Below, in pieces: positions 2,703 to 62,397 of a DNA stretch of 64,000 nucleotides. This DNA is from Minisyncoccota bacterium. GTDB taxonomy: Bacteria; Patescibacteriota; Minisyncoccia; Phycocordibacterales; JABMNX01. A program made the position numbers and the translations under genes. Positions within the stretch are counted from its first letter, which is position 1. Each line of letters opens with the position of its first letter. The notes under the pieces are model-generated. The model did not search any database, was not told the origin of the DNA, and worked only from the letters and a program-made list of their open reading frames with translations. The stretch covers positions 140,609 through 204,608 of the forward strand of contig OZ244961.1 in the NCBI GenBank assembly GCA_965222715.1, read 5' to 3'.

Positions 2703-4364
<1,662 letters not shown>

Positions 4365-8240: not shown

Positions 8241-8269
8241 GTATAGATTTTGGAGAGGTGGCAGAGTGG
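8241..8269 (+). repeat. direct repeat of the tRNA-Ser(GGA) 5' end plus 7 upstream bp (truncated tRNA 5' duplicate)
   Basis: GTATA.ATTTTGGAGAGGTGGCAGAGTGG recurs at 8359-8389; followed by a 13-bp perfect hairpin GAAGAAACACAAActgcTTTGTGTTTCTTC. Confidence 0.7.
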
Positions 8270-8367
8270 AAGAAACACAAACTGCTTTGTGTTTCTTCCG
8301 AAGCGTAGCGAAGGAGGACGACCCGAAGCCACCTCGTCCTGTAAGGCCAAAATACGAAGTATATTTT

Positions 8368-13346: not shown

Positions 13347-13680
13347 TAGCTTGTATTGGGTAGTTACTGGATATAGTTTCTATATCTAGAGGAAAGTCCG
13401 AACACGTCCACGTAAGTGGAGAAGGGTAGCGGGTAACACCCGTCTAGGGCAACCTAAGAGGTGCGAGCAGAGACGCCTAATTCGAAAGATGAGGGACTCC
13501 TTCGGGAGTAGCTCTGGTGGAAACACTAGAAGTGAAACGGCTAAATCCTTACCTACGTGCAAGGCCGTGCTGAGTTTAACTCAGAGTGCCGCTTGAGGTG
13601 TACAGTGATGTACATCCCAGATAAATGACTACCGTCGTCATTCGTGGCGATACAGAATTCGGCTTATAGATACAAGTGCA
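13347..13680 (+). ncRNA. rnpB: RNase P RNA (bacterial type A)
   Basis: GGAAAGTCCGAACAC P4 strand, AGGGCAACC-type internal segment, 3' ACAGAATTCGGCTTATAG matching the conserved ACAGAAcCCGGCUUA; P1 pairing GCTTGTAT/ATACAAG; P3 hairpin 13362-13386. Confidence 0.8.
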
Positions 13681-13690
13681 ACATATGGTA

Positions 13691-21255: not shown

Positions 21256-21282
21256 CCGAAATTAAAATACTGATATAAAACC

Positions 21283-21421
21283 AGTGTTTTAATTTTGGTC
21301 TCAGGAATCGAAAGACGGAACGAGCGGTAGCGAGTGAGTCCGGGTAGGAGCCACTTCGTACTATTCCAGTATACTGGCATAGTACGTTAGTGAGCTGACA
21401 CCGATTCCTGGCGGGGGCACA
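21283..21421 (+). repeat. tRNA 3'-flank structured element, copy A (ends in 19-nt repeat of the tRNA-Arg 3' end)
   Basis: core TCGAAAGACGGAACGAGCGGTAGCGAGTGAGTCCGGGTAGGAGCCACTT-hairpin-TAGTGAGCTGACACCG then CGATTCCTGGCGGGGGCAC, identical to 21237-21255; homologous to copies at 48970-49098, 57131-57228 and 58836-58952. Confidence 0.7.
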
Positions 21422-23228: not shown

Positions 23229-23338
23229 CAAAGTGCGAATGATGAGTTTAGTAACCTGACGCCAAGATTGACCGCAAATCTGCCCAAAAAACACCACAAG
23301 TACTTGCGGTGTTTTTTAGTGACTCTAAACAGTTTCCT

Positions 23339-48759: not shown

Positions 48760-48832
48760 CCGCCTATAGCTCAGTTGGTAGAGCAACCGCCTCTTAAGCG
48801 GTGGGTCCTAGGTTCGAGTCCTAGTGGGCGGA
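48760..48832 (+). tRNA. tRNA-Lys (anticodon CTT)
   Basis: cloverleaf by eye with C1-G72; anticodon loop CTCTTAA. Confidence 0.75.
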
Positions 48833-48859
48833 CTGAGTAATCAATAAGAACATACACAA

Positions 48860-48941
48860 GCGCGGGTGGTGAAATTGGTAGACACGCTTGCCTTAGGAGC
48901 AAGTGCCTTCGGGCATGGAGGTTCGAGTCCTCTCCCGCGCA
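48860..48941 (+). tRNA. tRNA-Leu (anticodon TAG)
   Basis: cloverleaf by eye, long variable arm; anticodon loop CTTAGGA. Confidence 0.8.
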
Positions 48942-48969
48942 CAAAAAAGAATTTAAAACCAATTTGAAT

Positions 48970-49098
48970 TTTCGGTGCCCGGGACGGGAGTCGGTGTCAG
49001 CTCACTAAGCGTTATGCGCTAAGTGGCTCCTACCCGGACTCACTCGCTATCGCTCGTTCCGTCTTTCGACTCCCTTGAACCAAAATTAAAACACTGAC
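48970..49098 (-). repeat. tRNA 3'-flank structured element, copy B (24-nt repeat of the tRNA-Leu(TAA) 3' end)
   Basis: minus-strand reading: CAGTGTTTTAATTTTGGT-TCAAGGGAGTCGAAAGACGGAACGAGCGATAGCGAGTGAGTCCGGGTAGGAGCCACTT-hairpin-TAGTGAGCTGACACCGAC-GTCCCGGGCACCGAAA. Confidence 0.7.
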
Positions 49099-49121
49099 CC
49101 TCGCCAGTGTTTCAATTTCGG

Positions 49122-49202: not shown

Positions 49203-49240
49203 AATAAGCAAAGCTCTCACGTATTGGAGAATTTTACTAG

Positions 49241-49312
49241 AGGCACGGGCGGGAATCGAACCCGCGCATCGCGGTTTTGCAGACCGCTGTGTTACCACTT
49301 CACCACCGTGCC
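49241..49312 (-). tRNA. tRNA-Cys (anticodon GCA)
   Basis: cloverleaf by eye, U73; anticodon loop CTGCAAA. Confidence 0.85.
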
Positions 49313-49454
49313 AAATTTTAATTAGTCTATCACGATTCCCGCCCGTCTCGGGCGGTCTCGATCCTTACAGGATCAGTACAGGTTGTCGATATTTTACTTC
49401 GTCCCTCATAAAATATCTGACAACCTTTTTCGACGCTACGCAATCTCGCGTCTC

Positions 49455-49508
49455 AACCCGCGCATCGCGGTTTTGCAGACCGCTGTGTTACCACTTCACC
49501 ACCGTGCC
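49455..49508 (-). pseudogene. truncated duplicate of tRNA-Cys (5' two-thirds only, no T-arm 3' strand or acceptor 3')
   Basis: 54 nt identical to 49259-49312, then diverges into long hairpins (49383-49425, GATCCTgtaAGGATC, CCGCCCGagaCGGGCGG). Confidence 0.7.
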
Positions 49509-49519
49509 TTTTTATTTTC

Positions 49520-49849
49520 TTACTCTTCTATTTCTCGAGAAATATCATCAATATGTTGTCGATGTTTTTCTCCAGTATCAATTTCAAACTCAACAAAAGG
49601 AATTCGTTTAGAATGCATCCGTTTTTTTAGATATTCCTTGAATTCACTCCGTTTTCTTCGTGCAAAATGTAGCGCCTGAGTCTCGTGTGTTTCCGGATAG
49701 ACGGTAAAATATACCGTTGCTCGTTTAAAGTCTTTTGAGATACTCACATTCGTTACTGTAATAAGTGATACACGGTTAGACTCTCGACTTAAAAATTCAG
49801 CCGCTACCTCTTGTATGTGTTTTGATACCTGATCACTTCTCTGCGACAT
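49520..49849 (-). CDS. rbfA: ribosome-binding factor A
   Basis: 109 aa immediately downstream of infB; KRATVYFTVYPE resembles the RbfA core. Confidence 0.6.
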   Translation of the reverse strand: MSQRSDQVSKHIQEVAAEFLSRESNRVSLITVTNVSISKDFKRATVYFTVYPETHETQALHFARRKRSEFKEYLKKRMHSKRIPFVEFEIDTGEKHRQHIDDISREIEE

Positions 49850-57018: not shown

Positions 57019-57130
57019 TTTATAGCTTATTGGTGGGGGATTTGGCGCCAGTTCTAAACTCACTCTGTTCGTTAAGAACTCGCTGCCCCGTCGTTCAAAT
57101 CACTCTCGGTAGGAAATTTATGATTCCCTA

Positions 57131-57228
57131 GGCGTCAGCTCACTAACCTCAAAATAGTTTTGTTAACAAAACTATTTTGAGGAAGTGGCTCCTGCCCGAG
57201 CTCGCCGTCGTTCGTTCCTCACGACATG
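57131..57228 (-). repeat. tRNA 3'-flank structured element, copy D (degenerate, 3' of tRNA-Tyr)
   Basis: minus-strand GGAACGAACGACGGCGAGCTCGGGCAGGAGCCACTTCCTCAAAATAGTTTTGTTAACAAAACTATTTTGAGGTTAGTGAGCTGACGCC; nearly identical to copy C in the hairpin region. Confidence 0.6.
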
Positions 57229-57285
57229 GCTCCGCTTCACAAAACGCAGAAAACCAGACGCAGGTCTGGTTTTCTTGCAGTTTTG

Positions 57286-57369: not shown

Positions 57370-57394
57370 ATTTCACATTCCGTTATATATTTTA

Positions 57395-57467
57395 GGACGT
57401 TACGGACACGTCCGTCAGATTCTTAACATTATTGGTCTGAAGCAACTAACCACTCTGCCACCGACGC
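57395..57467 (-). pseudogene. decayed partial duplicate of tRNA-Tyr (acceptor 5', D-arm, anticodon arm with 15-nt loop, no T-arm)
   Basis: TGCGTCGGTGGCAGAGTGG identical to the tRNA-Tyr 5' end, then diverged TTCAGAC-15nt-TCTGACGGAC. Confidence 0.6.
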
Positions 57468-58772: not shown

Positions 58773-58835
58773 CAATGATACAAAACAATAGCGTTTAGCT
58801 ATTATGTTGTAACTATCATTTCGAGGATTCAAGTG

Positions 58836-58952
58836 GACTCGAAAGACGGAGCCGAAGGCGAGTCCGGGCAGGAGCCACTTCCTCAAAATATTTTATGTTA
58901 ACAAAAGTATTTTGAGGTTAGTGAGCTGACGCCGAGTCCTCGTGGGCCCGCA
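58836..58952 (+). repeat. tRNA 3'-flank structured element, copy C (21-nt repeat of the tRNA-Trp 3' end)
   Basis: GGACTCGAAAGACGGAGCCGAAGGCGAGTCCGGGCAGGAGCCACTT-hairpin(CCTCAAAATA...TATTTTGAGG)-TTAGTGAGCTGACGCCGAGTCCTCGTGGGCCCGCAA. Confidence 0.7.
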
Positions 58953-61980: not shown

Positions 61981-62104
61981 TTTACGTCTCCTTTGTTGGT
62001 TTTGTGGAAGGACTCTATATCCACAGAAACCCTACTTGAATAGGGTATAAAAATCAAGCTATACAACTTGCAAGACACGGTTTTGATTTTCCTTCACAGA
62101 GTGC

Positions 62105-62154
62105 TGGAGGGGAGACTCGAACTCCGACAAACAGTACTTTAAGTACTGTTTGTC
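62105..62154 (-). pseudogene. orphan tRNA 3' fragment (T-arm plus acceptor 3' strand GGAGTTCGAGTCTCCCCTCCAGCA) preceded by a perfect 13-bp hairpin
   Basis: minus-strand GACAAACAGTACTttaAGTACTGTTTGTC then a T-arm-like sequence; no matching 5' half found. Confidence 0.4.
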
Positions 62155-62203
62155 TTCTAATTGAAACTGCAATTTTGAGACCATCAGTAGTCTTCTGCAC
62201 AAA

Positions 62204-62288
62204 TGGTGCCGCGGGAGAGAATCGAACTCTCACCTCTTGCGAGACACGATTTTGAGTCGTGCGCGTCTACCAATTCCGCCACCGCGGC
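62204..62288 (-). tRNA. tRNA-Leu (anticodon CAA), CCA encoded
   Basis: cloverleaf by eye, long variable arm; anticodon loop CTCAAAA; 3' ...GCGGCACCA. Confidence 0.85.
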
Positions 62289-62397
62289 ATCATTTGTGTA
62301 TAAAACCTCTTAATGATACACCGTATCATTAAGTACCGATTCCACCACTCCAGCAATACAGAAGAGTGTACAGAAATGTATGATGTAAGGCAATGTA

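Follow-up and report, generated by a model that had tools for sequence, protein, structure and literature searches.

How does a truncated, mismatch-free copy of a transfer RNA (tRNA) gene come to lie directly upstream of the intact gene, and what is the DNA that separates the two? This question is raised by the junction between rbfA and tRNA-Cys in a 64,000-nt stretch of DNA from a Minisyncoccota bacterium (contig OZ244961.1, positions 140,609 to 204,608). The whole 64-kb stretch is hereafter called the window, and all coordinates of the locus refer to its minus strand. An earlier note on this DNA had described a pseudo-tRNA-Cys, i.e., the first 54 nt of tRNA-Cys in exact copy, followed by hairpins and by an inverted fragment of the tRNA 3' part. 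The copy is indeed exact, being identical to the intact gene at 54 of 54 positions, and a repeat of this length is effectively impossible by chance. It was not called as a tRNA by ARAGORN, and its match to the Rfam tRNA model is partial only (22 bits, model positions 10-42). Since the copy ends at standard U55 in the Rfam tRNA alignment, the break falls between U55 and C56, in the T-loop. The insert that follows belongs to a Patescibacteria-wide family of structured modules of ~95 nt, here called type 2, that contain no open reading frame (ORF). The host was confirmed to be bacterial by the presence in the window of a type-A bacterial RNase P RNA (13348-13682, plus strand, 128 bits).

Structure and conservation of the inserted module

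We read the type-2 unit as the succession GAGA, P1, J12, P2, J23 and P3. Its consensus comprises UGAG, the P1 hairpin, GCAAGA or GAAAA, P2 with a bulged A, UGUACNG, and P3 in the form NNCC-UGUAA-GGNN (CCUGUAAGG). In the Cys insert, P2 is a hairpin that shows the bulged A and, in its upper stem, the conserved AGAUAUUUU/AAAAUAUC; J23 and P3 (49360-49380) give a pattern match that is unique in the window. The 5' part reads GCGGGU|UGAGACGC..GCGUCGAAAAA and is joined after a G-run of the host (compare L122-L150; L-numbers denote loci fetched from other genome assemblies). The insert as a whole folds with z = -6.65, and all of the hairpins reported earlier were found within its minimum-free-energy fold. 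The idea that they are idiosyncratic to this locus was rejected, as the long ones are the P2 and P3 helices of a module that is conserved and covaries.

By searching with a 19-base pattern (ATATC-N4-9-TGNACNGNNCCTGTAAGG), type-2 modules were detected in at least 118 genome stretches, nearly all of them from metagenome-assembled genomes of Patescibacteria and none from viral contigs. The hosts among the matches listed are Saccharibacteria, Kaiserbacteria, Paceibacterota, Taylor-, Lloyd- and Vogelbacteria. Across 130 model-aligned copies, 93.5% of cells were paired, 21 of 21 base pairs varied on both sides, and the covariation score was 0.482; shuffled columns gave 0.120, and slid partners no more than 0.077. 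High conservation marks the loops and junctions, i.e., UGUACNG, CCUGUAAGG and the bulged A. The covariance model (R1) scored 49360-49434 at 85.4 bits, the window copy having belonged to the training alignment, and a copy outside the training set, that of the relative L239 described below, at 75.5 bits (E 1.7e-16). Rfam 15, applied to the whole window at gathering threshold, returned only 12 of the 13 ARAGORN tRNAs and the RNase P RNA. At E≤10 it returned only noise on the locus, the insert alone and a type-1 element (see below), neither module type being matched. A literature search, raw motif strings included, found no description of the modules; only polymerase chain reaction primers, a study of tRNA introns (PMC13011429) and general papers on the candidate phyla radiation came up.

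Behind the module, the insert continues with a P1-type hairpin stub and an AT-rich spacer. The stub consists of the module tail GAGAC, a degenerate direct stub (CCGCCCG, tRNA nt ~62-68), the loop AGA and the inverted copy ACGGGCGGGAATCG. The latter is the reverse complement of CGATTCCCGCCCGT (49245-49258), i.e., of the first 14 nt past the breakpoint in the real tRNA; the match is exact over 14 nt, and not 13 as first reported. For sequences of 142 and 73 nt, ~3e-5 inverted 14-mer matches are expected by chance (arithmetic estimate). The fragment had also been likened in its position to elements in tRNA 3' flanks, and this held in part only: it is present, but does not abut the 5' side of the module as it does in those elements. 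It comes after the module instead and pairs locally with the degenerate direct stub GAGAC-CGCCCG, so that fragment and stub look like the first helix of a second unit without its module. We read P1 as coming in two forms, either as a private hairpin (as at 49431-49454) or as the real tRNA 3' half paired with its inverted copy, the trailer being the loop. On that reading of the unit, the Cys stub would be a tRNA-type P1 with no module behind it. As to the spacer, it resembles by eye the native tRNA-Cys upstream region of empty-site relatives (L240, L243, L245, L246). A simple sigma-70 scan found no full promoter in it on the minus strand; the spacer is promoter-like, and its letters suggest that it may serve as a promoter.

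Recurrence of the architecture and the orthologous site in relatives

The comparative genomics of infB-rbfA-tRNA-Cys proposed in the earlier note was carried out on eight loci (L239-L246) from seven distinct relatives, L240 and L241 being counted together. All eight keep the gene order Aminotran_5, DUF4446, infB, rbfA and tRNA cluster, and the nearest relatives are 67-72% identical in IF-2. The site was found to be empty in L240/L241, L242, L243 and L245, with 4-28 nt from the rbfA stop to tRNA-Cys. By contrast, L239 (71% identical in IF-2) has a filled site of window-like architecture, consisting of a pseudo-copy of ~52 nt, a type-2 module, CGCCCG-ATC-CGGGCGGGAATCG, an AT-rich spacer and tRNA-Cys. 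Two more sites hold other inserts before an intact tRNA, i.e., a GIY-YIG ORF behind a pseudo-copy of ~33 nt in L244, and small GC hairpins with a 16-nt pseudo-copy in L246. The pseudo-fragment sits at the position that the tRNA occupies in the empty sites, and the rbfA|tRNA-Cys junction is therefore a repeatedly hit site. The L239 pseudo-copy has diverged from L239's own tRNA-Cys, and the inverted 14-mer tracks the acceptor base of its own genome (ACGGG... in the window, CCGGG... in L239). All seven of the seven basal P2 pairs differ between the window and L239 modules, which places the two in different subfamilies.

The same architecture, in which a 5' tRNA copy from +1 is followed by a module, a short tRNA-derived hairpin, an AT-rich spacer and the intact tRNA, recurs at other tRNA genes. 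At a tRNA-Arg (L186), an exact 54-nt 5' copy with the same ...GGGGGTT| break precedes a module, CGATT-CCT-AATCG, a TATAAT-containing spacer and the intact tRNA. Further 5' tRNA copies stand before type-2 modules at tRNA-Val (48 nt in L227, 24 nt in L225), tRNA-Ser (19 nt in L174) and tRNA-Pro (14 nt in L198). The presence of this architecture in independent assemblies, these five and L239, argues against an assembly error.

Overall, 54 of 127 type-2 copies had a same-strand tRNA within ~200 nt (43 upstream, 11 downstream), and eight an opposite-strand tRNA only. Approximately 35 of the 43 copies with an upstream tRNA show a 3'-flank layout, i.e., tRNA, trailer, inverted copy from the T-loop on, module, and direct copy of the tRNA 3' part. 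The inverted copy in this layout spans 9-21 nt, from T-loop to discriminator, and ends in ...UCGAA directly before the type-2 module. A terminator-like hairpin usually stands between tRNA and module, and the direct copy, starting at about C56, comes after P3 and is preceded by the module tail GAGA(C). Other sites of type-2 copies are protein genes or their immediate surroundings, an antisense copy of 5S rRNA and the interior of other modules.

The flanks of all 13 tRNAs of the window were inspected. Four carry on their 3' side an element of another kind, type 1, and a fifth (Phe) carries a decayed remnant. At Arg, Leu and Trp, type 1 consists of an inverted tRNA copy from C56, then GAAAGRCGGAG..GAGYCCGGGYA-GGAGCCACUU-hairpin-UUAGUGAGCUGAC-RC, then a direct 3' copy; the Tyr element has neither tRNA-derived copy. 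The core (GGAGCCACUU..UUAGUGAGCUGAC) is predicted to form a three-way junction, closed in the former three by the inverted T-loop copy and the direct 3' copy. Its motif was found in at least 120 metagenome stretches and in no viral contig, and 72 of 108 type-1 copies had a same-strand upstream tRNA, as against one with an opposite-strand tRNA. All four occurrences of the core in the window lie outside 49313-49508, and it is only by architecture and nesting that the Cys locus is related to type 1. Both types have in common the junction at C56 and a motif ...UCG-AAAR after the inverted copy, and type-2 modules were found nested in type-1 elements, between CCGGG and GGAGCCAC (L022, L052, L177). 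Given this nesting, and the type-2 modules in 3'-flank layout elsewhere, both are variants of one phenomenon, as had been surmised for the Cys locus at the outset.

Junctions were analysed for 351 unique tRNAs from the fetched loci, which had been chosen for carrying modules. Among upstream direct copies of at least 12 nt, 40 of 77 started exactly at tRNA +1, the next commonest start position counting 5, and identity seldom extended more than 3 nt upstream of +1. Downstream copies started 18-21 nt from the tRNA 3' end (the C56 region) in 95 of 143 cases and reached that end in 103 of 143, most of them stopping no more than 2 nt beyond it. CCA was not enriched after the direct 3' copies (3 of 103), which argues against a mature, CCA-bearing tRNA as template. 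At differences between a tRNA and its distal copy, the inverted copy is complementary to the real tRNA 26 times and to the distal copy 11 times. The junctions show microhomology of 1-5 nt.

The pseudo-5' fragment as such cannot be regarded as special to type 2, as partial upstream tRNA copies starting at +1 are common and carry unrelated inserts. In the window, a pseudo-5' tRNA-Ser(GGA) (8252-8367, plus strand) comprises 18 nt and a 98-nt insert, and a pseudo-5' tRNA-Tyr (57370-57467, minus strand) 19 nt and a 79-nt insert. The Ser insert contains GUCCUGUAAGGCC, which is P3-like. Its 5' hairpin loop AAACUGCUUUG recurs after D-loop breaks (L036, L183, L211), and the hairpin with this loop is also the 5' module of many type-1 copies. 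Elsewhere in the window (62101-62354, minus strand), a complete tRNA-Leu(CAA) (62204-62288), the only ARAGORN tRNA of the window with an encoded 3' CCA, lies within a different, older tRNA-Leu(CAA), which it splits into a 5' piece of 21 nt (62334-62354) on one side and a 3' piece (62101-62125) on the other. The acceptor of the older gene, GCTGGAG..., is that seen in the Kaiserbacteria loci L131 and L210. In L143 (6500-6950), an antisense copy of the 5S rRNA gene with two inserts, one of them type 2, adjoins the intact 5S gene; the pattern of duplication and interruption is hence not limited to tRNAs.

Several observations concern the surroundings of the orthologous site. The L244 insert (3381-3700) carries an 85-aa GIY-YIG ORF at the rbfA|tRNA-Cys junction. 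The small GC hairpins of L246 (3357-3486 and 3682-4203) contain GGGATAGAGTCC and have an HNH ORF nearby, and L245 has, downstream of the gene, a tRNA-Cys T-arm copy with an inverted loop (3520-3545). In the window, the tRNA-Lys(CTT)/tRNA-Leu(TAG) pair (48760-48942, plus strand) is inverted relative to the collinear Cys-Leu-Lys-Leu cluster of relatives (L239:5007-5343, L240:4749-4979). One breakpoint of this inversion adjoins the distal tRNA-Leu(TAA) 3' copy of a type-1 element.

Table 1. Features of the rbfA-tRNA-Cys locus and type-1 elements elsewhere in the window.
Feature	Position	Strand	Details
rbfA	49520-49849	-	Pfam RBFA, E 1.2e-17
Gap from rbfA stop to pseudo-tRNA-Cys	49509-49519	-	11 nt
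Pseudo-tRNA-Cys	49455-49508	-	copy of tRNA-Cys nt 1-54 (standard +1 to U55)
Insert between pseudo-copy and intact tRNA-Cys	49313-49454	-	142 nt
Type-2 module	49360-49454	-	first 95 nt of insert; with the shared U at 49455 the unit starts UGAG
Helix P1a	49431-49454	-	local hairpin GAGAC-GC..GC-GUCG (fold); homologous to the UGAG-hairpin-GCAAGA 5' part of other copies
Module core, J12+P2+J23+P3	49360-49430	-	covariance model R1
J12	49426-49430	-	AAAAA
P2	49381-49425	-	17-bp hairpin with conserved bulged A, GGTTGTCaGATATTTTA...TAAAATATCGACAACC
J23	49375-49380	-	UGUACU
P3	49360-49374	-	GAUCCUGUAAGGAUC, hairpin GATCCTGTAAGGATC
P1-type hairpin stub	49333-49359	-	GAGAC-CGCCCG-AGA-CGGGCGG-GAAUCG, no module behind
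Stub hairpin	49339-49355	-	CCGCCCG-AGA-CGGGCGG, minimum-free-energy fold
Inverted copy of tRNA nt 56-69	49333-49346	-	ACGGGCGGGAATCG, 14 nt, exact
AT-rich spacer	49313-49332	-	TGATAGACTAATTAAAATTT, extended -10-like TGnTAnnnT
Intact tRNA-Cys(GCA)	49240-49312	-	ARAGORN; Rfam tRNA 68.2 bits
Type 1 after tRNA-Arg(CCT)	21258-21420	+	
Type 1 after tRNA-Leu(TAA)	48975-49119	-	
Type 1 after tRNA-Trp	58774-58950	+	
Type 1 after tRNA-Tyr	57125-57284	-	
Type-1 remnant after tRNA-Phe	23230-23275	+	

Origin of the interrupted tRNA-Cys copy

Our best explanation, to which we accord about as much belief as doubt, is that type 2 is, or by domestication descends from, a non-autonomous selfish module. It would enter tRNA genes within their loops, and a duplication would preserve the tRNA. 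A copy of the tRNA-Cys gene would have been split at U55|C56 by the module, with its 5' part left as the pseudo-tRNA. Behind the module would then stand a P1-type hairpin of tRNA-Cys 3' sequence, the promoter-like spacer and the complete, functional tRNA-Cys. A copy-and-join process, by template switch or recombination, may insert the module at tRNA loop positions and duplicate end-fragments of the tRNA in direct and inverted orientation, always leaving an intact tRNA; the first helix of the module would thereby be built from tRNA sequence. The family membership, conserved structure, recurrent architecture, filled versus empty orthologous sites and precise junctions are direct observations. 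From them, we infer mobility itself and the copy-and-join mechanism. That junctions fall at +1 and at the 3' end of the tRNA hints at RNA as the intermediate, in the form of tRNA fragments; the lack of CCA after the copies, the sequence-conserved stems and the symmetric wobble counts (see below) are against it or neutral. A single-stranded-DNA route, with a hairpin-recognising transposase or template switching, is equally plausible.

A number of points weigh against a selfish, mobile module. No terminal inverted repeats, fixed-length target duplication, autonomous partner or enzyme were found, so that mobility rests on presence/absence and copy number only. Because the nearest relatives are only ~70% identical in IF-2, the insertion cannot be dated, and loss is possible. 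The 54/54 identity could reflect selection or gene conversion and not a recent event. The covariance model finds a single type-2 copy in the window, that of the Cys insert, and in the helices not only the pairing but the sequence itself is strongly conserved. G-U and A-C counts are symmetric (31/31 in the MAFFT alignment, 47/42 in the model alignment, with a fixed C-A pair in one subfamily) and thus give no strand signal to decide between the RNA and DNA levels. As pseudo-5' fragments also carry unrelated inserts (the L244 GIY-YIG ORF, the L246 GC hairpins), the duplication may be a general process of tRNA genes. Finally, the choice of loci for their modules biases all frequencies.

The ORFs beside the window elements are housekeeping genes, with no transposase, reverse transcriptase or integrase among them, and clustering of ORFs within 2.5 kb of modules at 238 loci yielded no transposase or reverse transcriptase. 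The top clusters in these loci (EF-G, RbfA, NusG, L11 and similar) reflect tRNA synteny. Recurrent neighbours include a YraN/UPF0102 nuclease-like protein (8 of the 238 loci) and, in 11 loci, a helix-turn-helix (HTH) protein of 215-238 aa whose far side, away from the tRNA, bears no pseudo-fragment. In eight of the 11 loci of the HTH family (L104, L151, L176, L073, L107, L180, L091, L086 and three more), its gene immediately precedes a tRNA gene or overlaps the start of one; in the remaining three it is near a tRNA gene or divergent from it. The proteins combine an HTH at the N-terminus with an LYWAEGYK motif, and their only Pfam hit is a weak HTH_23 match; we suspect a LAGLIDADG-like endonuclease.

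Alternatively, the module might be a functional cis-acting RNA device of the host, co-transcribed with infB-rbfA and the tRNA cluster, which we consider unlikely. Two versions can be envisaged. In one, the inverted 14-mer would pair with the tRNA-Cys 3' half (T-arm and acceptor 3' strand) and thereby gate how the tRNA folds or is processed; the second version would make the tRNA-derived helix a minihelix-like end recognised by RNase P, RNase Z or the CCA-adding enzyme. Such a device is consistent with the covariation of all helices, the highly conserved loops and junctions, and the strong same-strand bias of both module types with tRNAs. It also agrees with the better fit of inverted copies to the real tRNA than to the distal copy, the 14-mer that follows its own acceptor base in the window and in L239, and the direct copies that stop at the tRNA 3' end. 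Moreover, the 281-nt region folds with z = -4.9, the pseudo-acceptor 5' strand pairing with the real 3' strand. However, four of the seven distinct relatives have no upstream insert and two more have different ones, which makes the device dispensable for tRNA-Cys. The copies in or beside protein genes, in the antisense 5S rRNA copy and within other modules also speak against it, as do the terminator-like hairpin that usually parts tRNA from module in the 3'-flank layout, and the wobble counts with their lack of a strand signal.

It is likewise improbable, in our view, that the locus is the scar of a tRNA gene replaced by larger mobile or foreign DNA. An integrase, a homing endonuclease or a transformation event, i.e., homology-facilitated illegitimate recombination anchored on conserved tRNA sequence, would have introduced a cassette equipped with a promoter and a tRNA-Cys of its own, the module being a passenger or filler and the pseudo-fragment the displaced 5' part of the resident gene. 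The T-loop is reportedly a classical crossover site of tRNA-targeting integrases. The pseudo-copies and intact tRNAs around a GIY-YIG ORF in L244 and near an HNH ORF in L246 fit such a replacement, as do the old tRNA-Leu(CAA) split around a different, CCA-encoding one in the window, the likeness of the spacer to native tRNA-Cys upstream regions, and the 1-5 nt of microhomology at junctions. Saccharibacteria are naturally competent (PMC10633639), which is also in keeping with it. On the other hand, a foreign donor would not be expected to match the resident tRNA throughout, as the duplicated 54 nt do, and no integrase or endonuclease gene was found near the window elements. The repeat is the 5' part of the tRNA, simple attachment-site logic leaves the inverted 14-mer unexplained, and the module is too conserved and too abundant for random filler.

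Quite unlikely is a further possibility, that a small mobile RNA of a new class, ribozyme-like or protein-guided, underlies both type 1 and type 2, whose modules would be its DNA copies, retro-integrated beside the tRNA gene. Such an RNA might be circular, as the module occurs in two circularly permuted forms. Transcripts of tRNAs would be attacked by it, or joined to it by ligation, at U55|C56, the D-loop or the anticodon loop, and module-tRNA chimeras bounded by mature tRNA ends would be reverse-copied beside the gene, the Cys locus representing "5' half + module".

An artefact of assembly collapse or expansion, or chance similarity, deserves hardly any credence, for although the assembly is of metagenome type, the insert between the repeats is unique sequence of a conserved family, the layout is repeated in independent assemblies from other projects (L239, L186, L227), and exact repeats of 54 nt and, inverted, of 14 nt are beyond chance.

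To return to the selfish-module explanation, we file type 2 as a selfish, structured, tRNA-targeting repeat element, one of a set of abundant, strongly conserved modules of Patescibacteria that neither Rfam 15 nor our literature search had turned up. They show the few tRNA genes of these minimal genomes to be hot spots of repeated interruption and repair, and the leftover pseudo-fragments can mislead tRNA annotation and assembly checks. The precise junctions, with their locally matched direct and inverted copies, point to a targeting or copying mechanism that known bacterial elements do not explain. If it were RNA-mediated, it would constitute a new route of bacterial genome change; the chance of a categorically new, RNA-mediated thing is modest.

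Comparison with known systems

Several identities were considered and rejected. A miniature inverted-repeat transposable element does not fit, as the ends UGAG... and ...AAGGAUC are not mutual inverted repeats and the repeats flanking the module stem from tRNAs and vary in length (12-54 nt). Hammerhead, twister, twister-sister, pistol, hatchet, HDV-like and hairpin ribozymes gave no Rfam match at E≤10 in 49313-49460 or in the type-1 element, and none of hammerhead, HDV-like, K-turn, box C/D and group II domain V fits when junction order is compared by eye. An intron of protein genes was rejected as a general explanation: in a screen for removals that restore a long ORF, only L142 was intron-like, whereas L179 proved to be a 5' untranslated region and L143 a pseudo-5S. 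In L142 (3897-3973, minus strand), a short ORF rich in Cys contains the type-2 module and stays in frame when the latter (GTGAG...AAGGAA) is removed.

Self-splicing group I introns are known from Patescibacteria tRNA genes, where they exceed 200 nt and sit at positions 35/36 of an otherwise single gene (PMC13011429). The Cys insert shares with them the phylum, the class of host gene and insertion into tRNA loops that escapes annotation tools. It differs in its length of 142 nt, in that no 3' exon follows and in the intact tRNA alongside. Group I identity was rejected, as there was no Intron_gpI match at gathering threshold or E≤10, and a spacer and a whole tRNA come after the insert.

The primer-binding sites of long terminal repeat (LTR) elements and the tRNA-like 3' tags of retroplasmids and viral RNAs also involve the complement of a tRNA 3' part up to the T-loop and tRNA-derived segments bounded by mature ends, with possible minihelix mimicry; the modules differ in the lack of CCA after their direct copies. 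An LTR primer-binding site was rejected since the Cys complement covers nt 56-69 only, short of the 3' end and CCA, and no LTR or reverse transcriptase was found. Archaeal mobile bulge-helix-bulge introns and split or permuted tRNA genes resemble our loci in placing small inserts at numerous non-canonical positions of tRNAs, in the D-loop, anticodon loop, variable region and T-loop, and in having tRNA halves whose flanking sequences are complementary. Here, however, the host is bacterial, as its RNase P RNA indicates, no bulge-helix-bulge motif was recognised, and the interrupted copy, which has no 3' half, is made redundant by an intact gene.

With the attL/attR sites of integrative elements at tRNA genes, the modules share an intact tRNA kept by partial duplication, a T-loop breakpoint and, in the 3'-flank layout, direct repeats of the tRNA 3' part around the insert. 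Type 2 differs in that its inserts are ~100-140 nt and without integrase, the 5' part from +1 is duplicated at Cys, an inverted 3' copy is present, and one module occurs at many tRNAs with locally matched copies. A remnant of an integrase attachment site was rejected for the Cys locus, where the repeat is the 5' 54 nt and not a tRNA 3' segment, and the neighbouring ORFs examined comprise rbfA, infB, DUF4446 and housekeeping genes.

Lastly, the selfish palindromic repeats of reduced genomes, namely Rickettsia palindromic elements (RPE), REP/BIME-REPIN and IS200/IS605-derived PATE elements are likewise short (~100 nt), ORF-less, dominated by hairpins and present in many copies per lineage, and they are tolerated in or beside essential genes, RNA genes included. 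The conserved bulged base in the long type-2 hairpin and the adjacent conserved GUAC motif are reminiscent of hairpins recognised by Y1/HUH transposases; no RAYT, TnpA or Y1/HUH transposase ORF was found near the window elements in the 64 kb of genome covered. Unlike these three kinds of elements, type 2 has a strong preference for the tRNA T-loop, is flanked by tRNA-derived direct and inverted copies that they do not make, and occurs in two circularly permuted contexts, with either its own P1 hairpin or a P1 made from the tRNA.

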